This document shows, piece after piece, positions 3,085-62,455 of a stretch of DNA of 64,000 nucleotides (position 1 is the stretch's first letter; each line of letters starts with the position of its first letter). A program made the translations under genes and the position numbers. The notes under the pieces are model-generated. The model did not search any database, was not told the DNA's origin, and was given only the letters and a program-made list of their open reading frames with translations. The stretch lies in the NCBI GenBank assembly GCA_018380095.1, contig JAGZUI010000001.1, positions 172,111-236,110 on the forward strand, written 5' to 3'. This DNA is from Atopobium sp. Lineage in GTDB: Bacteria; Actinomycetota; Coriobacteriia; Coriobacteriales; Atopobiaceae.

Positions 3085-5103
3085 CTACTCATCAATGTCT
3101 GCTTCCATCTTTTCTGAAAGCTCCAACCATTCAGCCTCAAGCGCAGGAATCTTCTTAGAAAGTGCCTGGTATTCCGCCATGCACTCATCAAACTTTTGAG
3201 GATCGTTATAGAGAGCCTCGTCAGCCATAAGCGTCATGAGCTCATCGTATCGTTTATGCGCAGGAGTCAGCGCTGCCTCAACCTCGTCCAGACGTTTCTT
3301 GGTCTCTCTAAGCGCACGACTTCTACGATTGCGCTCCTCTGCCTCAGCTCTTCTCTGCTCCTTAGTCTTCACATTGCGAGAAGAACCTGCAGCTTGACCT
3401 GCCTCTGGGCCAGAACTCTTAACCGCTCTTGCACCCGATGTGCCATACGAGGATACCGTTTTGCTCGACGTCTCCCCTTGCGCTGCTGCTTGAAGCTCTG
3501 CCAGCTTAAAGAGGAAGTAATCATAGTTACCGTCATAGACCGTAACCTTGTGGTCGCGAACGTCCACAACCTTGTTAGCTACAGCTCTGACCAGGTGCTC
3601 ATCGTGACTGATCAAGATGATAGTTCCTGGGAAGTCAACAAGTGCCTTCTCTAGAACGTCAACAGAGTCAATGTCCAGGTGGTTAGTTGGCTCATCCAGA
3701 AGTAACAGTGGATCTGGAGAGACCAGCATCTTAGCAAGTGCCAGACGAGCACGCTCACCACCAGAAAGTACATTTACGCGTTTCTCAACGTCATCGCCAT
3801 GGAAAAGGAAGGCTCCAAGCAATCTACGCTCTTCAGAAGTAGTCCAGCCAGCAGCAACGGTATCAAGCTCTGCAAGTACCGTATTTGCAGGATTGAGCTC
3901 TTCAAGCTGATGCTGTGCATAATAGGCTTCAGTGACGTTTTGACCCAGGCTAATCTGTCCCGCATCTGGCTTAAGTTTGCCAGCAATAAGCTTCATAAGA
4001 GTAGATTTACCAGCACCATTAGGGCCAACAAGTGCAACGTGATCTCCGCGATACAGCTTAAGGTCAACGTTATCGTAGACAAAGTTATCCTCGTAAGATT
4101 TGGCCACGCCCTCAAGAGAGATGACGGTGTCTCCGGTACGAGGAGGTTCTGGGAACCTAAAATGCATGTGATGAGATTGCTCTGGAAGAACTACCAGTTC
4201 TTCACGGATCTTCTCGACTTTTGTCACGCGCTCTTGAACCTGTTTTGCCTTGGTAGGCTTATACCTAAATCGCTCAATGAAGGTCTCCATGTGAGCAATA
4301 TCGCGCTCTTGAGCTGCACGTTTAGCACGGAGCTGCTCAAGATTTTCTTCTCGCTGATGAAGATAGCCGGAATAATTGCCGGTATAGGTTACGAGCATAC
4401 GATTCTCAAGCGCCGCCACGTGCGTTACGCATGCATCCATAAACGAGCGATCGTGACTTACCAGCAAAACCGTACCATCATATGACGATAAGAACCTCTC
4501 AAGCCACTGGACAGATTCCAAGTCCAAGTGGTTAGTAGGCTCGTCCAGAAGAAGAACATCAGGACGACGCAGAAGCAGCTTTGACAAAGAAATACGCATC
4601 TGCCAGCCGCCCGAGAACTCTTTAGCTGGCTTATCGAAGTCTTCAACGGGAAAACCCAGGCCCGCAAGAATCTGGCGAGCTCTACTCTCTAATTCATAGC
4701 CACCAAGACGCTCGAAGCGCTCCATAGCATGAGCGTAGTCTTCAAGATACTTATTGAGCGTTGCACCTTCGGGAGTTTCGGCAATTTTGATTGAAAGGTC
4801 GTTAACCTTTCTCTCCCACTGTTTAATCTCATGCGCAGACTCAATTACCTCGTTGAGGGCGGTTCTGTCTCCCATGAGCTCTGTTTCTTGCTCAAGATAT
4901 CCCAGGGTAGCATCTTTTGCAAAGGTAATGGTTCCTTCATCGGCAGACTCTAAGCCCATTATGATTTTTAGAAGCGTAGTCTTACCAGCACCATTAGGAC
5001 CAACTAAAGCCCAACGCTCTCCTGCATTGAGCTGAAGTGTTGCATTTGAATAAAGAACTCTGCCGCCAAATGACTTTGAAATCTTATCCGCAAGAGCAAT
5101 CAA
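3085..5103 (-). CDS. ABC-F family ATPase (Uup/EttA-like, two ABC domains plus C-terminal coiled-coil); TTG start
   Basis: Two Walker A (GPNGAGKTT, GPNGAGKST), two signature motifs (LSGG), no TM segments, charged coiled-coil tail; start codon is TTG with GAGGAG 5 nt upstream. Confidence 0.85.
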   Translation of the reverse strand: MIALADKISKSFGGRVLYSNATLQLNAGERWALVGPNGAGKTTLLKIIMGLESADEGTITFAKDATLGYLEQETELMGDRTALNEVIESAHEIKQWERKVNDLSIKIAETPEGATLNKYLEDYAHAMERFERLGGYELESRARQILAGLGFPVEDFDKPAKEFSGGWQMRISLSKLLLRRPDVLLLDEPTNHLDLESVQWLERFLSSYDGTVLLVSHDRSFMDACVTHVAALENRMLVTYTGNYSGYLHQREENLEQLRAKRAAQERDIAHMETFIERFRYKPTKAKQVQERVTKVEKIREELVVLPEQSHHMHFRFPEPPRTGDTVISLEGVAKSYEDNFVYDNVDLKLYRGDHVALVGPNGAGKSTLMKLIAGKLKPDAGQISLGQNVTEAYYAQHQLEELNPANTVLAELDTVAAGWTTSEERRLLGAFLFHGDDVEKRVNVLSGGERARLALAKMLVSPDPLLLLDEPTNHLDIDSVDVLEKALVDFPGTIILISHDEHLVRAVANKVVDVRDHKVTVYDGNYDYFLFKLAELQAAAQGETSSKTVSSYGTSGARAVKSSGPEAGQAAGSSRNVKTKEQRRAEAEERNRRSRALRETKKRLDEVEAALTPAHKRYDELMTLMADEALYNDPQKFDECMAEYQALSKKIPALEAEWLELSEKMEADIDE

Positions 5104-5155
5104 GTGAACTCCTCATACATATCTGAACTGGATAAGTATAAGTCATTCACTTGAT
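5099..5155 (-). promoter_or_regulatory. second copy of the same inverted-repeat hairpin, lacking a U-tract; 3' arm contains the TTG start of the ABC-F gene
   Basis: ATCAAGTGAACTCC(T/C)CATACAT ... TTCACTTGATA shared with 6289-6348; arms at 5099-5108 and 5146-5155. Confidence 0.5.
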
Positions 5156-5197
5156 ATACGTGCAAAATTATGTAAATGAAACCAGGCTTATGAAGAT

Positions 5198-6136
5198 TTA
5201 TTGACGCTTCTTATGAAGGAAAAGAGCTGCGGCAGCAACAACGATAGTTGCGCCAGCAACGCCAATAATCAAAGGAAGTGTAAGAGCGTTATCACCAGTA
5301 TCTGGAAGAACGGACTTCTTAACCTTCTTAGCCTTTGGAGCCTCTGGTTGTGGCTGAGGCTCTGGTGCTGGAGTTGGCTCTGGCTCTGGAGCAGGTGTTG
5401 GATCTGGTGCAGGCGTTGGAGCAGGAATACGAGGATCAACAAAAGTTACTGTGGCAGTAGTATTTGTACCAGTGATCTGACCAACACGAACCGTTGTATC
5501 AATCTGGTAACCATCAATGGTGGTGAGCTGTGTGATGGTAGTGGAAGTGTTACCCATAAGGTTAGGAATTACAACAGAGCCATCTGCACCAGTTGTAAGA
5601 GAGTAGCTTCCGTCAGCCTCCATGGTGAGAATACCGGTCTGAGTAAATGGAGGTGTTGGGATATGAGGTCCAGCAACGTTTGCGGCAGTAGCCTTAAGAG
5701 TTGCACCGGCAATAGGATTGCCATCTGTGTCAACAACTTTAACAATAATATTGCCTAAAATTGGCTGGTTCTCCAGTTCAGCAGTGACCACATCACCTAA
5801 ACCATATGTAGCGCCATCAAAAACGTAAGAAACAGAGTCGACCTGATGAACATAGCCATCTTTATAAGTGGTCTGTTCAACTCTATAAGCACCGTCAGGA
5901 AGAGGAAGATAAGGATTAAAGTAACCGTTAGCGTCTGTTTCTCCCTCGGCCACGATAGTAGAACCACCTTGATAAATTACAACATGTACGCCCTCAATTG
6001 GTTCACGTGTATATTTATCAACAGCGAGAGCACTAATCTCATTAGAGTCTGCAAGTGCAATTCTTGGAGCGATGACTGATACAACAAGTGTCAGCACAAC
6101 TAAAACAGCAAGAACAATGTTTTTATATCGTTTCAA
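5198..6136 (-). CDS. sortase-anchored surface protein (LPDTG cell-wall sorting signal, Cna B-type repeats, Pro-rich stalk), paralog A
   Basis: N-terminal signal peptide; C-terminal LPDTG + hydrophobic stretch + HKKRQ tail; PAPEPEPTPAPEP linker; shares a conserved C-terminal ~130 aa block with next gene. Confidence 0.8.
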   Translation of the reverse strand: MKRYKNIVLAVLVVLTLVVSVIAPRIALADSNEISALAVDKYTREPIEGVHVVIYQGGSTIVAEGETDANGYFNPYLPLPDGAYRVEQTTYKDGYVHQVDSVSYVFDGATYGLGDVVTAELENQPILGNIIVKVVDTDGNPIAGATLKATAANVAGPHIPTPPFTQTGILTMEADGSYSLTTGADGSVVIPNLMGNTSTTITQLTTIDGYQIDTTVRVGQITGTNTTATVTFVDPRIPAPTPAPDPTPAPEPEPTPAPEPQPQPEAPKAKKVKKSVLPDTGDNALTLPLIIGVAGATIVVAAAALFLHKKRQ

Positions 6137-6282
6137 TTCAATTCCTTAAAACCGAATCATACAAGTAAATACTTCTATCCATAGTAAGGGAATTAGACAT
6201 TGAATTAAAGATAATATCCAAAACTAAACACAATTATTTCAAATTTTTAACTGGCAAAACTGAGGAAATCTGTACTCACCTT

Positions 6283-6346
6283 ATAAAAATCAAGTGAACT
6301 CCCCATACATTTTCAAATTACTAAATGCACAGGTCGTTCACTTGAT
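6283..6346 (-). terminator. intrinsic terminator after surface-protein gene B: 10-bp stem ATCAAGTGAA/TTCACTTGAT, large loop, then TTTTTAT on minus strand
   Basis: Inverted repeat at 6289-6298 and 6337-6346; T-tract immediately 3' on minus strand (plus 6283-6288 AAAAAT). Confidence 0.6.
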
Positions 6347-6390
6347 AGACATAAACAAATTTTGAATCAGATTCAATAAATCCTATAGTC

Positions 6391-7824
6391 TTAGAAACGT
6401 TTCTTGCTCAGATACATTGAGACACCAGCAAGAGAGCTTAATGTACCTGCAATTCCAACAATTAAAGAAGAGACACCAGAAATGTCAGAAGTGTCTGGAA
6501 GTACAGCCTTCTTTTTCTTTGGAGTCTTAGGCTTTTCCGGAGTCTGTGGTTGAGGCTCAGGAGTAGGCTCTGGAGCTGGCTCAGGCTGAGGTTCTGGCTG
6601 TGGCTCTGGAGTAGGTGGCTCTGGTCTACGATTTACAAACGTAACCGTAGTTGTCTCGTTAGAGCCAGTAATCTCACCAACCTGAGGATTAGGATCATCA
6701 ATAGTGTAACCATCAAGAGTGGTCAGCTGAGTAATAGTAGATTCTCTCTCAACAAGATAATCAGGAATAATTACGGTGCCATCAGGACCAGTTGTGAGCA
6801 GATAATTGTCATCAGCATCCCTATCCAACTCACCCGTCTGAGTATAAGGGACACCGGGAGCTGACGGGTCCTGAGTCATAGCACGAGGAGCGCTAGAACC
6901 AGTTAAATAGGCTGGATCAGGTGTATTAAATCCACCCATAGAAGGAGGACATGCTGGTGATGGAATTCCAGGAGTTATTTCATAAGCAGGAGTTGCCTTT
7001 AAAGTTGCGCCAGCAATAGGATTCCCGTACTGGTCAACAACTCTTACAACAATATTACCAATTCTAGTTGGGAGTTTAATTGTTGCGCGAGTTGTTTGCT
7101 CGAAGAGACGAGTATCTGAATCATAAGGGAACGTTACAGCATGTAGAGGAACCATGCCATTATTGCTGGTTGGAGAACATGCGAAAACAGAGTCAACCAT
7201 TACGGCGTCGTTGTTATATCCATAACGAGTGGGATAATTTTTTGGAATAAGTGTATAGCTTCCCGTTACTGGTACGGTGACGCTTTGACCACCTGGAACA
7301 TTTGAAGCAATTCTATTTCCAAATTCATCTTCAATGTCAAATTGAATATCAGTAATAGCATTTGAACCCCAAATACTAGCTGGTACCTTCTTCTCGGCAC
7401 CAACATAAAGCTGGCCCATAATATGGACATTTTCAAAGTTAATGGTCTGAGGATCGCCATCACTACCAGTAGGAGCGGAGAAAGTCACGTTTTTAGCTGT
7501 GTGATCAATAACATATCCAGCTTTAAACGTTGTCTGCTCAACCTTATAACTTCCGTTAGCAAGGCTAGTCTGAGCTCTACCGTTTTGGTTAGTAATCATA
7601 GTTGCAGCGTTGGTACCGGTAACTGTATTAGTCACGGTAATTGTTACACCATCAACAGGTTGACCATAATAGTCATCAGTAACATTAACCGTGAGCTGAT
7701 TTTGAACTGCTGCTTCTGCAAGCGCAAGCTTTGGAACTCCAATTACAATTACGCAGCATAGTGCAACTAAAATTGACGCTGCTACATACTTGAACTTTTT
7801 CACTTTCAAACCTTCCAAATCCAT
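6391..7824 (-). CDS. sortase-anchored surface protein (variant LPDTS sorting signal, Cna B-type repeats, Pro-rich stalk), paralog B
   Basis: Signal peptide, repeated NG(S/A)YKVEQTT(F/Y)K motifs, PEPQPEPQPEP linker, LPDTS + hydrophobic + SKKRF tail. Confidence 0.8.
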   Translation of the reverse strand: MDLEGLKVKKFKYVAASILVALCCVIVIGVPKLALAEAAVQNQLTVNVTDDYYGQPVDGVTITVTNTVTGTNAATMITNQNGRAQTSLANGSYKVEQTTFKAGYVIDHTAKNVTFSAPTGSDGDPQTINFENVHIMGQLYVGAEKKVPASIWGSNAITDIQFDIEDEFGNRIASNVPGGQSVTVPVTGSYTLIPKNYPTRYGYNNDAVMVDSVFACSPTSNNGMVPLHAVTFPYDSDTRLFEQTTRATIKLPTRIGNIVVRVVDQYGNPIAGATLKATPAYEITPGIPSPACPPSMGGFNTPDPAYLTGSSAPRAMTQDPSAPGVPYTQTGELDRDADDNYLLTTGPDGTVIIPDYLVERESTITQLTTLDGYTIDDPNPQVGEITGSNETTTVTFVNRRPEPPTPEPQPEPQPEPAPEPTPEPQPQTPEKPKTPKKKKAVLPDTSDISGVSSLIVGIAGTLSSLAGVSMYLSKKRF

Positions 7825-7973: not shown

Positions 7974-8014
7974 AAAAAAGCGAGAAGTCCCTTCTACATG
8001 AAAGCTCTTCTCGC
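7974..8014 (-). terminator. intrinsic terminator downstream of VOC gene
   Basis: GCGAGAAG ... CTTCTCGC stem followed by T6 on minus strand. Confidence 0.7.
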
Positions 8015-8046
8015 CAAAAAATCGATAATAAGATAGATGGAATAGC

Positions 8047-8439
8047 CTACTTATCCATGGTGAGATGAATAGCAAAGCCAGCAATCTCTTCTTTGAAATA
8101 GACCAAAAACGTACTGCCATCTGGATTAAGCCTTCTAGATAACTCATCGATTTCAAAGCCCCGACCTGCAAAGTATTTCTCGGCAGCAGGAATGTTGTTA
8201 ACATGGAAGCCAATATGACCCTTTGTGCCTCGGCCATTTTGTTTCATGACCTCTACCAGGGTCCCTGCAAAAAATGAAGGTGGCTGCTCAATAGTTGGAA
8301 GTCCCATAAGAGCGGTAAACAGGTTTGCAATCTTTTCTGCCTCGTCCGCATTGCTTGCGTTAATGCCAACGTGAGCAACGTACATATCAAACTGCTCGAC
8401 TGGATTAAGAGCGCTGGAATTGTTAGTTGAATCTGTCAT
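8047..8439 (-). CDS. VOC family protein (glyoxalase/bleomycin-resistance fold)
   Basis: 130 aa, sequence pattern typical of VOC proteins (HIGFHV, two beta-alpha-beta-beta-beta halves); family assignment from memory only. Confidence 0.55.
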   Translation of the reverse strand: MTDSTNNSSALNPVEQFDMYVAHVGINASNADEAEKIANLFTALMGLPTIEQPPSFFAGTLVEVMKQNGRGTKGHIGFHVNNIPAAEKYFAGRGFEIDELSRRLNPDGSTFLVYFKEEIAGFAIHLTMDK

Positions 8440-8570: not shown

Positions 8571-8645
8571 TGGTGGGCGATGCTGGATTTGAACCAGCGA
8601 CCCCTTCCGTGTGAAGGAAGTGCTCTACCCCTGAGCCAATCGCCC
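8571..8645 (-). tRNA. tRNA-Val (anticodon CAC), CCA encoded
   Basis: Manual fold: acceptor GGGCGAT/ATCGCCC, D arm GCTC..GAGC, anticodon stem CTTCC/GGAAG loop TTCACAC, T loop TTCAAAT. Confidence 0.9.
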
Positions 8646-9683: not shown

Positions 9684-9759
9684 TGGTGGGCCCAGAGGGA
9701 TTTGAACCCCCAACCCAGGGATTATGAGTCCCCTGCGCTAACCGTTGCGCCATGAGCCC
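9684..9759 (-). tRNA. tRNA-Met (CAT), elongator type (or tRNA-Ile lysidine type); CCA encoded
   Basis: Manual fold: acceptor GGGCTCA/TGGGCCC with G1:C72 pair, anticodon loop CTCATAA; anticodon stem lacks the three consecutive G:C pairs of initiator tRNA. Confidence 0.85.
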
Positions 9760-9799: not shown

Positions 9800-9875
9800 T
9801 GGTGGAGAATAGGGGGATCGAACCCCTGACCTCATGACTGCCAGTCATGCGCTCTCCCAGCTGAGCTAATTCCCC
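9800..9875 (-). tRNA. tRNA-Ala (GGC), CCA encoded
   Basis: Manual fold: G3:U70 identity pair in acceptor stem (GGGGAAT/ATTCTCC), anticodon stem CATGA/TCATG loop CTGGCAG. Confidence 0.9.
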
Positions 9876-9949: not shown

Positions 9950-11665
9950 TTAAAGCTCGCGCTCTGGAAGGATCTTCTCGGCCAGCCAAGAGCCAACTTC
10001 ATCAAGGGCAACCTCAAAGCGTTCACCGGTAGCACGCTCTTTGACTTCTGCAACGCCGTTTGCAACGCCCTTCTTGCCCACAATAACCTGCCATGGGAAG
10101 CCGATAAGATCTGCGTCTGCAAACTTAACACCAGGACGCTCTGCACGATCATCAACAACAGTCTCAAGACCAGCAGCAACGCAAGCGTCAGCTACAGAAC
10201 CTGCTGCATCCCAAATCTCTGGGTCTTTGTCAGAGAGACAAAGAACAGAAACCTCATAAGGAGCAACAGAGACTGGCCACTTGATGCCCTTCTCGTCATT
10301 GTATTGTTCAACAACAGCAGCAAGCAGCCTGGAAACACCAATGCCGTAGCAGCCCATAACCAGAGGCTTATCCTCGCCGTTTTCGTCGGTGAAGGTGGCG
10401 TTAAGGGCTGAAGAGTACTTGGTGCCAAGCTGGAAGACCTGGCCAACCTCAATACCGCGAGCAGCATGCAAAGGAAGTCCGCACTCAGGGCAAATATCGC
10501 CCTCCTGAGAAGTGACAAGGTCTTTCCACTCGTTAATCTCAAAGTCACGACCAAGCTCAACGTGATCAAGGTGATAATCTGCCTTGTTAGCGCCGCAGAG
10601 CCACCACTGACTATCCTCAAGAGAGAGGTCTCCAACAACGCGGATACCCTCAGGTAGACCAACAGGTCCAATGAAGCCCTTGATGAGGCCATACTCTTCA
10701 AGCTCTTCATCGGTCATCATGTGATAGTCACCAAAGACGTGCTCTGCCTTAACCTCATTGAGCTCATGAGTACCTGGAACAAAGCACACAACTGGCTTAC
10801 CGTTTCCGTCAACAAGTGCAAGAGCCTTGCGAGTTGCTGCTGGTGAAACGTGAAGGAACTCAGCAACATCATCAATGGAGCCAATGCCAGGAGTGTGAAT
10901 CTCACACATCTTGCCAGACTCACGCTCTTCTACGTTGATCTTTGCTGCAGCTGCCTCAGTATCTGCAGCATAGCCGCAATCGCAGTAGACCAGACTTGCC
11001 TCGCCAGCCTCTGCCAGCGCCATAAACTCAACAGAGGTGTCTCCACCAATCTGACCAGAGTCTGCAACTACCTGAAGAGCCTTAAGACGTGTGCGGTCAC
11101 AAACGTTCTGGTAAGCAACCTTTTCCTGGTCATAGCATTCTTGCAGCGACTCTTGATTTGCCGAGAAGGAATATCCGTCTTTCATAATGAACTCACGGCC
11201 ACGCATAAGACCAAAGCGTGGACGACGCTCGTCACGGAACTTATCCTGAATCTGATAGAGCGTTACAGGAAGCTGTTTATAGCTCTTGAGCTCATTTCTA
11301 ATAAGGTCTGTGAAGGTTTCCTCGTGAGTTGGGCCAAGAGCAAACTGACGATCATGACGGTCATGCATACGCATGAGCTCGTCTCCGTAGACGTCCCAAC
11401 GACCAGACTCTTCCCAGAGCTCAGCTGGAGTCATGATAGGAACAAGAATCTCCTGAGCACCAATACCGTCCATCTCATCGCGGATGATGGCCTCAATCTT
11501 TAAAAGAGAGCGCCATGCAAGTGGCAGATAAGAGTAAAGACCAGCAGCGGTCTTTCTAATCATGCCAGCACGAAGGAGCAGGCGGTGACTTGCAAGTACA
11601 GCCTCAGCTGGGTCTTCTTTGAGCGTTGGTGCATACAAAGAAGACATGCGCATCCAGTGCTTCAA
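9950..11665 (-). CDS. proS: prolyl-tRNA synthetase (bacterial type with editing insertion)
   Basis: 571 aa class II aaRS with ProRS motifs; conserved position after ispG/rseP. Confidence 0.95.
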   Translation of the reverse strand: MKHWMRMSSLYAPTLKEDPAEAVLASHRLLLRAGMIRKTAAGLYSYLPLAWRSLLKIEAIIRDEMDGIGAQEILVPIMTPAELWEESGRWDVYGDELMRMHDRHDRQFALGPTHEETFTDLIRNELKSYKQLPVTLYQIQDKFRDERRPRFGLMRGREFIMKDGYSFSANQESLQECYDQEKVAYQNVCDRTRLKALQVVADSGQIGGDTSVEFMALAEAGEASLVYCDCGYAADTEAAAAKINVEERESGKMCEIHTPGIGSIDDVAEFLHVSPAATRKALALVDGNGKPVVCFVPGTHELNEVKAEHVFGDYHMMTDEELEEYGLIKGFIGPVGLPEGIRVVGDLSLEDSQWWLCGANKADYHLDHVELGRDFEINEWKDLVTSQEGDICPECGLPLHAARGIEVGQVFQLGTKYSSALNATFTDENGEDKPLVMGCYGIGVSRLLAAVVEQYNDEKGIKWPVSVAPYEVSVLCLSDKDPEIWDAAGSVADACVAAGLETVVDDRAERPGVKFADADLIGFPWQVIVGKKGVANGVAEVKERATGERFEVALDEVGSWLAEKILPEREL

Positions 11666-62378: not shown

Positions 62379-62455
62379 TGGTGACCCCGGTGGGTTTCGA
62401 ACCCACGACCTTTTGCTCCGGAGGCAAACGCTCTAATCCACTGAGCTACGGAGTC
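62379..62455 (-). tRNA. tRNA-Arg (CCG), CCA encoded
   Basis: Manual fold: acceptor GACTCCG/CGGGGTC, anticodon stem TTTGC/GCAAA loop CTCCGGA, T loop TTCGAAA. Confidence 0.9.

Follow-up and report, generated by a model that had tools for sequence, protein, structure and literature searches.

The question raised by this locus is to which gene a duplicated hairpin belongs, when one copy follows a surface adhesin gene and the other follows a second adhesin gene and runs into the start of a gene encoding a translation factor of the ABC-F type, and what the structure may do there. The window analysed (the whole stretch of 64,000 nucleotides) comes from an oral bacterium of the Lancefieldella parvula group (Coriobacteriia), and the neighbours are housekeeping genes (tRNA genes, proS and scpAB). 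All genes of the locus discussed here lie on the minus strand. They comprise the ABC-F gene (3085..5103), encoding a YheS/YdiF-like translation factor of 672 aa, the gene of adhesin A (5198..6136), identified by the Pfam SpaA model and its translation as an LPDTG-anchored surface protein of 312 aa with a SpaA fold, and the gene of adhesin B (6391..7824), assigned by Pfam as a SpaA/SdrD-B-like surface protein of 477 aa.

Pfam searches indicate that the ABC-F product contains two ABC_tran domains, ABC_tran_Xtn and ABC_tran_CTD; over its full length it best matches the YheS model PRK10636 and the PDB YheS chains, and it reaches the cut-off of no named resistance ABC-F family. The 672-aa product is identical in public annotations; an exact-product look-up returned no match, and the initial protein search found near-identical ABC-F sequences only and no more distant relatives. 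Homologues aligned with the N-terminus, (M)IALADKISKSFGG, begin at the same residue, using either TTG or ATG. Housekeeping ABC-F factors (YheS, YdiF and Uup types) act by rescuing or tuning ribosomes. To our knowledge, little has been established on how their synthesis is set, and the ABC-F leaders that we know of belong to antibiotic-resistance paralogues and depend on upstream open reading frames (uORFs).

The two copies with a shared stem described in the original prediction were found where it had placed them, with an outer stem of 11 bp, not 10, and both were predicted to form stable hairpins when folded as RNA. The hairpins, each of ~58 nt, occupy positions 6348-6289 (distal copy) and 5157-5099 (proximal copy), are separated by ~1.2 kb and begin 42 nt after the stop codon of adhesin B and 40 nt after that of adhesin A, respectively. 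The sequence ATCAAGTGAAC is present at 6289-6299 and 5099-5109, and its complement lies at 6336-6346 (exact) and 5145-5155 (one mismatch), the arms being 35 nt apart; a search with this 11-mer, allowing up to one mismatch, gave six matches (1.5 expected), four of which are the four hairpin arms. Both sense-strand RNAs fold into an interrupted hairpin of ~22 bp, in which a 2x2 internal loop separates the 11-bp outer stem from an inner stem. The minimum free energy (MFE) is -28.8 kcal/mol in the distal copy (z = -8.5) and -26.5 kcal/mol in the proximal one (z = -6.1), and none of 200 shuffled sequences folded as well. The inner stems are homologous as well, with one compensatory change (C:G to U:A) between the copies. 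Because of G.U pairs, the sense strand is more stable than the antisense strand by 8–11 kcal/mol (-28.8 vs. -17.8 for the distal copy and -26.5 vs. -18.8 for the proximal copy). In the covariation analysis, 96.3% of cells were paired, five pairs showed double changes and none of 500 shuffles matched the observed values; stem positions 19-44 and 21-42 interchange among G.U, G:C and A:U.

Only four tRNAs in the window reached the Rfam gathering score, and the best matches on the hairpins in a permissive Rfam scan of positions 4900-6500 were eukaryotic miRNA models with E-values of at least 1.3. A covariance model run over the 64 kb with filters off found two copies only (distal, 90.9 bits; proximal, 68.9 bits). 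Among the matches listed in the metagenome scan, 56 copies were of the proximal type and 42 of the distal type; all 98 occupied the same two sites, and no other context yielded a Lancefieldella-like copy. Within the window and among the matches listed, the element is thus not a dispersed repeat of the REP or MITE kind, the circumstance that had been named as fatal to the original prediction. The hairpins are gene-sense RNA stem-loops that, in the same material, keep to one locus in the L. parvula complex, and their evolutionary depth is limited, since all the hairpin-bearing genomes come from this one species complex.

The proximal hairpin (5099..5157) has a 5' arm composed of positions 5155..5145 and the strand of the inner stem, and its 3' arm contains the ABC-F Shine–Dalgarno (SD) sequence, the spacer, the TTG codon and the first two nucleotides of codon 2. 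Burial of the ABC-F start, as had been proposed from the sequence, was borne out by the folding: the start codon TTG (5101..5103) is wholly paired within the outer stem, with a probability of being unpaired of 0.0008, and four of the six bases of the SD sequence GAGGAG (5109..5114), located 5 nt ahead of TTG, are paired. The calculated cost of opening the ABC-F initiation region is 27.5 kcal/mol with the hairpin, the second highest among the 52 genes of the window (median 14.0 kcal/mol), and 11.3 kcal/mol without the 5' arm. An opening cost of ~27 kcal/mol for the full hairpin suggests a block of ABC-F initiation rather than translational coupling.

The conservation of this region is exceptional. 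Nucleotide diversity (pi) over 88 unique sequences is 0.009 in the proximal hairpin, compared with 0.081 in the upstream spacer and 0.215 at the third-codon positions of ABC-F, and among about 116 contigs the hairpin shows just seven rare variants; it is identical even across lineages in which ABC-F is only 88% identical at the nucleotide level. The first 26 nt of the coding sequence (5078..5103) are invariant, third-codon positions included, and the first variable site is +27; overall, 102 of the 133 third positions are variable. The distal hairpin, with a pi of 0.059 and a variable loop, is about six times less conserved. Low diversity together with covariation in the paralogous copies indicates that the hairpin structure is maintained by selection. 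Occlusion alone does not explain why the apical stem and coding positions +1 to +26 are conserved to such an extreme degree.

The relatives help to clarify the origin of the element. In L050, which has no adhesin and whose ABC-F is 72% identical, the start region reads GGAGTTaatgtCACTTGATTGC and forms no hairpin, and GGAGTT..CACTTGATTGC stands at the site of the proximal 3' arm. Since it is present in this adhesin-less relative, the 3' arm is ancestral to ABC-F, representing the gene's original SD sequence, spacer, TTG and second codon. In L002, an adhesin of another type lies upstream, yet an identical spacer and hairpin begin exactly at its stop codon; after an A-type adhesin in the same relative there are just 50 nt, without a hairpin. 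The unit of 95-nt spacer and hairpin thus remains with ABC-F regardless of the upstream adhesin. The relatives L046, L055 and L043 have a single adhesin and the proximal copy only, and the original expectation that ABC-F in single-adhesin relatives would be preceded by the same hairpin held for L046 and L055. The initial assignment of the element to the 3' end of the adhesin genes has to be corrected: judging by these comparisons, the proximal hairpin is not primarily a terminator of the adhesin and belongs to the ABC-F initiation region. A complementary 5' arm would have arisen in the lineage that received LPXTG-adhesin cassettes between ABC-F and the partner gene that used to lie upstream of it. 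As for a tandem duplication of an adhesin gene together with its terminator, also envisaged at first, the adhesins are indeed paralogues (amino acid identities of 42% and 31%), but the regions upstream of A and B could not be aligned (local score 19 vs. a shuffled mean of 21), so a simple recent event of this kind is unsupported, and a simple tandem duplication with homologous left flanks was rejected. The hairpin alone survives as a repeat.

The distal hairpin (6289..6348), the paralogue of the proximal one, carries a fossil of the SD sequence and TTG (GGGGAG-TTCAC-TTG-ATT). Directly 3' of its stem lies a U-rich tail, UUUUAUAA (6281..6288), kept in relatives as TTTTTATAA or TTCTTATAA. Compensatory changes were found in the distal copies of L065 and L044; in L065, the distal outer stem has undergone three compensatory double changes and the proximal copy is unchanged, which contradicts a sequence-level constraint or gene conversion keeping the distal arms equal to the proximal ones. 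The distal copy, already taken for a terminator in the original prediction on account of its U-tract, evolves as a structure-only element and looks like an intrinsic terminator, at which transcription presumably ends. It is probably an older, duplicated copy of the hairpin that no longer serves translation, has acquired or retained a U-tract and now terminates transcription of adhesin B. The 3' flank of the proximal copy, UGCUCUUG, is set by ABC-F codons and includes no proper U-tract, so this copy may not terminate at all.

Two putative promoters may account for ABC-F transcription. A consensus scan yielded the candidate P1 (5167..5194), with TTCATA (TTCACA in most relatives), a 16-nt spacer and CATAAT, and its predicted transcription start lies about 4–6 nt ahead of the hairpin. 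Its -10 hexamer is conserved, and the spacer and discriminator are polymorphic. The candidate internal -10 box P2, TATACT (5135..5140), is located in the 5' arm of the proximal copy and has no counterpart in the distal one; it is a single hexamer in AT-rich surroundings and lacks a -35 element. Short Logan contigs were considered as possible transcript ends; their breaks fall inside the variable adhesin and are uninformative on transcription starts. If P1 were the sole promoter, every ABC-F mRNA would have the full hairpin and be nearly untranslatable without an opener; a start at P2 would give mRNA without the 5' arm and lower the opening cost from 27.5 to 11.3 kcal/mol.

The following mechanism can be suggested. 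In any RNA that contains both arms, including read-through from the adhesin gene and P1 transcripts, the hairpin would lock the ABC-F initiation region, acting as an insulator or repressor that shields ABC-F synthesis from the hypervariable adhesin cassette, which is controlled separately; it may double as a weak terminator or 3' stabiliser of the adhesin A mRNA. Productive ABC-F mRNA would lack the 5' arm, owing to a start at the internal TATACT or to RNase III-type cleavage, or, by another route, a trans-acting factor would open the proximal hairpin. The data show the structures, their restriction to this locus in the sequences covered, the ancestry of the 3' arm, the linkage to ABC-F, the selection pattern and the thermodynamic occlusion; termination, the insulating role and the escape route are what we infer, and the account as a whole, namely a locking proximal hairpin owned by ABC-F and a distal duplicate serving as a terminator, is put forward with moderate confidence.

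The most probable alternative, although it seems rather unlikely, is that both copies merely terminate the adhesin mRNAs as intrinsic terminators or stabilise their 3' ends. Their overlap with the ABC-F start would then be incidental, and the ABC-F mRNA would always start within or after the hairpin, leaving its translation unaffected. The location of both copies 40–42 nt past an adhesin stop codon and the U-tract of the distal one agree with it, as does TATACT in the proximal 5' arm, since a transcript from there has an ordinary opening cost (11.3 kcal/mol). However, the proximal copy has no U-tract and tracks ABC-F rather than a particular adhesin, the A-type adhesin of L002 manages with 50 nt and no hairpin, and the roughly sixfold greater conservation of the proximal copy is not predicted by a structure-only role. 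Moreover, the canonical terminator of this genome, found after a 130-aa gene, is a short GC-rich stem followed by U6, quite different from these AT-rich stems of ~22 bp.

Two further readings can be considered. According to the first, every ABC-F mRNA starts at P1 with its initiation region locked and is opened only by a specific signal (for example stress on translation, the action of an RNA helicase or RNase, or ABC-F itself), i.e., the hairpin is a riboregulator without a uORF or an alternative fold; we consider this doubtful, and, if true, it would account for the absence of sequence variation in the apical stem and at coding positions +1 to +26. According to the second, the ~22-bp helix in the adhesin-ABC-F or P1 transcript is an RNase III-type processing site, the cutting of which separates the messages, removes the 5' arm and activates ABC-F translation. 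The helix has about two turns with a 2x2 internal loop, processing would explain expression despite the locked initiation region, and there is a precedent in the Staphylococcus aureus cspA mRNA, where RNase III cleavage in the 5'UTR raises mRNA stability and translation (PMC3386247). Against this, the 11-bp outer stem could remain paired after cleavage, and a cut at the internal loop would land inside the SD sequence; processing of this type as the main function is quite improbable.

An inducible attenuator of the kind found with resistance ABC-F, erm and cat genes, in which a ribosome stalled on a leader ORF over the 5' arm exposes the SD sequence, is very improbable here. Its model is Clostridioides difficile cplR, in which a terminator hairpin sequesters the ABC-F SD sequence under uORF control (bioRxiv 10.1101/2022.12.05.519065), and two short frames do cross the hairpin, one from GTG at -45, with its TGA overlapping TTG, and one from ATG at -42, ending at +20. 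Neither frame has an SD sequence, and both are interrupted by stops in rare natural variants (the GTG frame in L034, the ATG frame in L120 and L142), which led to the rejection of leader-ORF attenuation; in addition, P1 would leave only about 4 nt ahead of the hairpin, and the YheS-like protein falls below the resistance family cut-offs. Anti-terminator or anti-sequestor pairing was likewise rejected, including a pairing through the CUUAUCC/GGAUAAG 7-mer that would engage coding positions +15 to +21: the best duplexes of the 5' arm with upstream (-10.0 kcal/mol) and downstream (-15.7 kcal/mol) sequence were no better than the shuffled controls (means -10.8 and -11.7, sd 2.3). Finally, the perfect 11-bp inverted arms and the presence of one direct copy on each side of a hypervariable adhesin cassette might suggest an element acting as DNA, either a palindromic site for binding or recombination (such as an operator, or one that aids adhesin-cassette exchange) or a mobile repeat (MITE, REP, integron attC), but this too is highly unlikely, as the structure is strand-specific through its G.U pairs, the pairs 19-44 and 21-42 interchange among G.U, G:C and A:U, the arms stand 35 nt apart, the element keeps to two copies at this one locus among the matches listed, the single-adhesin alleles observed are mosaics and not hairpin-to-hairpin deletions, and the attC cores RYYYAAC/GTTRRRY are unmatched by the arms AGTGAAC/GTTCACT, with two mismatches each.

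The preferred reading, a locking hairpin that belongs to ABC-F, presents a non-resistance ABC-F gene whose SD sequence and start codon are held in an ultra-conserved hairpin that probably arose with the insertion of an adhesin cassette upstream. If the insulating role is true, the locus would be a clear natural example of a core gene shielded from a newly inserted, strongly regulated neighbour, and of a translation-initiation region that was duplicated and put to new use as a terminator. The finding is narrow in scope, being confined to a single species complex of oral Coriobacteriia; it falls into a familiar class of mechanism, and the wiring of gene expression is well supported but fairly conventional.

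Among known systems, the leader of cplR, along with those of vmlR and the lsa-type genes, has a similar layout, with a stem-loop right upstream of ABC-F and the SD sequence in its 3' arm; with the SD sequence inside the 3' arm of a single hairpin, both transcription read-through and translation can be blocked, as in the cplR type. The cplR leader has a conserved uORF, an alternative anti-terminator, a poly-U tract and antibiotic induction, whereas the ABC-F copy described here has no credible uORF, no alternative pairing and no U-tract, its start codon is buried as well, and the protein is a YheS-like housekeeping ABC-F. The distal copy resembles intrinsic terminators in being a stem-loop after a stop codon, with a U-rich tail and compensatory substitutions; unlike the canonical terminator of the genome, the stems are unusually long and AT-rich, and the proximal copy has no U-tract. 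In Escherichia coli adhE, an RNase III-processed 5'UTR hairpin activates translation. The proximal hairpin is comparable to such 5'UTRs, that of cspA included, as a long leader helix to be removed or remodelled before efficient translation, with processing being hypothetical in the present case.

The insulating logic itself has a counterpart in the fold-back inhibition of insertion sequences, in which the ribosome-binding site is paired with sequence from ahead of the gene's own transcription start, so that only the transcripts reading in from outside are silenced; it was reportedly described for IS10/Tn10 by Davis, Simons and Kleckner (Cell, 1985). Unlike IS10, no transposase or mobile element is involved here. 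The IS10 logic needs the transcription start of the gene to lie between the pairing segments, and a candidate -10 box for such a start at this locus is TATACT in the 5' arm; the likeness consists in the same insulator logic, which is proposed here to act on read-through from the adhesin gene.

All genes of the adhesin/ABC-F part of the window lie on the minus strand and are arranged, in transcription order, as a 130-aa gene (8439..8047), adhesin B (7824..6391, 477 aa), adhesin A (6136..5198, 312 aa), the ABC-F ATPase gene with its TTG start (5103..3085, 672 aa) and the genes of an M50 peptidase, scpA and scpB. By public annotation and by comparison with related loci, the organism belongs to the Lancefieldella (Atopobium) parvula complex. 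Over its full length, the ABC-F protein matches both the YheS model and solved YheS chains, and it scores under the cut-offs of all named families of resistance ABC-F proteins. Adhesin B carries LPDTS instead of LPXTG ahead of its hydrophobic tail (6391–6480, minus strand) and matches the Gram_pos_anchor model weakly (E = 9e-4); the LPDTG of adhesin A is standard. The minus strand also bears four tRNA genes (8574–8645, 9687–9759, 9803–9875 and 62382–62455); three of them lie between proS (9950..11665) and the adhesin locus, a short way upstream of the latter.

The repeat predicted 3' of both adhesin genes is real: the distal copy (6348..6289, minus strand) begins 42 nt after the adhesin B stop codon, and the proximal copy (5157..5099, minus strand) 40 nt after that of adhesin A. 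As sense RNA, each copy folds into an 11-bp outer stem, a 2×2 internal loop and an inner stem, with minimum free energies of −28.8 kcal/mol (distal, z = −8.5) and −26.5 kcal/mol (proximal, z = −6.1). The antisense fold is 8–11 kcal/mol weaker because several pairs are G·U, so the hairpin is a feature of the gene-sense RNA. Directly 3' of the distal stem lies UUUUAUAA; the proximal 3' arm reads GAGGAG-TTCAC-TTG-AT, that is, the ABC-F Shine–Dalgarno sequence (SD), spacer, start codon and beginning of codon 2. The ordinary terminator of this genome, judging by that of the 130-aa gene, is a short GC-rich stem, from which the long AT-rich hairpins differ; this canonical intrinsic terminator (~7974–8015, minus strand) consists of GGCGAGAAG...CTTCTCGC followed by TTTTTT.

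In RNA carrying both arms, the computed probability that the start codon is unpaired is 0.0008, and opening the ABC-F initiation region costs ~27 kcal/mol with the hairpin vs 11.3 kcal/mol for RNA beginning in the loop. A crude opening-cost scan of 52 window genes ranked ABC-F second (25.1 kcal/mol; median 14.0); the one costlier start, a GTG at ~36639 (minus strand) of a 152-aa ORF (28.1 kcal/mol), may have been wrongly picked as a start codon. TTG is the sole workable ABC-F start: homologous proteins start from this residue too, and on inspection of the sequence the following in-frame ATG comes past Walker A. The roles assigned in the original prediction, with the upstream copy as a putative terminator and the downstream one as a predicted occluder of the ABC-F start, have good support from sequence, thermodynamics and evolution; the proposed coupling of ABC-F translation to read-through from adhesin A looks unlikely, because the modelled hairpin is stable.

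Diversity in an alignment of 88 unique sequences (−260 to +400 relative to the start of ABC-F) was highest at ABC-F third-codon positions (π 0.215), with 0.081 in the spacer upstream of the hairpin and 0.009 in the proximal hairpin; for the distal hairpin it was 0.059 overall, 0.139 in the loop and 0.005–0.015 in the outer arms. In these sequences the initial 26 nt of the ABC-F coding sequence (5078–5103, minus strand) do not vary, synonymous sites included; overall, 77% of third positions vary. The proximal hairpin shows just seven rare variants in ~116 contigs without anchoring bias, five of them in the apical loop, and is identical between lineages whose ABC-F genes share only 88% nucleotide identity. 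The distal copy gathers G·U, G:C and A:U exchanges, and its outer stem bears compensatory double substitutions (three in the related locus L065, TTTAAGCGAAC...GTTCGCTTAAA, and one in locus L044); it is therefore under structure-only constraint. Pairing holds for 96.3% of cells in the joint alignment, and double changes occur at five pairs; none of 500 shuffles reached these values, and all slid registers drop to 26–48% paired. The proximal copy is constrained at the sequence level, as would be expected if translation signals fix the 3' arm and complementarity fixes the 5' arm. The lack of variation in the apical stem and at coding positions +1 to +26 exceeds that expectation, and for the coding positions could reflect a helix extension, a ribosome standby site or another constraint.

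A common REP-like repeat is contradicted by a covariance model based on 44 variants, which, with filters off, matched only the proximal and distal sites in 64 kb, and by an exact-arm scan of metagenome contigs (at least 120 loci), where the matches listed comprise at least 56 proximal-type and 42 distal-type copies, besides at least 50 unrelated hairpins from other environments, and include no third context for a Lancefieldella-like copy. An Rfam scan gave no family match for the hairpins. Near-perfect palindromes of another, unrelated family, ATCAAGTGAAAGTGCACATTTTTGGGATCCAAAAATGTGCACTTTCACTTGAT, have the same 10-nt arm ends by coincidence; they recur in several metagenome contigs (L076, JGI20169J29049_11443264; L097, L104, L136, L161, L168, L186 and L189) whose environments differ from those of the Lancefieldella sources.

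The suggested tandem duplication of an adhesin gene with its terminator is not supported in its simple form: the adhesins are paralogous (42% and 31% amino acid identity), but the regions upstream of them are no longer alignable, and the hairpin is the sole recognisable repeat. Among 74 related genome loci compared, all those of L. parvula type carry the proximal hairpin, which extends 4–5 nt into ABC-F, and most have the distal copy ~1.2 kb upstream. Single-adhesin relatives (L046, L055, L043) keep the hairpin before ABC-F, as the proximal copy only. In locus L002, another adhesin type precedes ABC-F, and the identical 95-nt spacer plus hairpin starts right at its stop codon; farther upstream in this locus lies an A-type adhesin, behind which there are just 50 nt and no hairpin. 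In the nearest adhesin-less relative, L050 (ABC-F 72% identical), ABC-F follows the 130-aa gene by 42 nt without a hairpin, and its start region is GGAGTTaatgtCACTTGATTGC. On these comparisons, the 3' arm is the initiation region that ABC-F had ancestrally, and the 5' arm is a novelty that arrived with the adhesin insertion. Since GGGGAGTTCACTTGATT is still present in the distal copy, the latter derives from the ABC-F start region, not the reverse; the element is a copied ABC-F leader, not an adhesin terminator that chanced onto ABC-F. Between the 130-aa gene and ABC-F, the slot for adhesins (5198–7824, minus strand) is hypervariable in the species complex and its flanking genes are conserved; it holds zero, one or two cassettes, among them types A and B, a third type (L002) and mosaic alleles (L046), with apparent pseudogenes bearing in-frame stops in L043 and L065. 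Other Coriobacteriia ABC-F orthologues (L060, L050, L063) also start with TTGATT, and in L060 (400–520) an unrelated local hairpin, GGGGTGAAC...GTTCAGCTCC, has the start codon in its loop.

We infer several routes by which ABC-F, a housekeeping gene, may escape the block. Transcription from a candidate promoter in the constant spacer (5194..5167, minus strand; TTCACA or TTCATA, 16 nt, CATAAT), whose −10 hexamer is conserved and whose spacer is polymorphic, would put the hairpin at the extreme 5' end of the ABC-F mRNA. A start at TATACT (5140..5135, minus strand), which lies in the proximal 5' arm and is absent from the distal one, would yield an mRNA without the 5' arm, and the hairpin would silence only RNA arriving from upstream. 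RNase III-type processing would be another possible route.

In IS10 fold-back inhibition, only RNA entering from upstream is silenced, a logic shared with the TATACT-start reading of the proximal hairpin. For S. aureus cspA, RNase III cleavage in the 5'UTR makes the mRNA more stable and better translated (PMC3386247). Among ABC-F genes, the nearest precedent is the leader of C. difficile cplR, where a terminator hairpin under uORF control sequesters the SD (bioRxiv 10.1101/2022.12.05.519065). The parts that define cplR, a credible uORF and an alternative pairing, fail at the proximal hairpin: neither of two short frames across it has an SD, natural variants place stops in both, and no alternative pairing beats shuffled controls, so a cplR-like uORF attenuator is rejected here. 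The hairpins, which are specific to this locus, belong to a familiar class, that of SD-sequestering and terminator hairpins.
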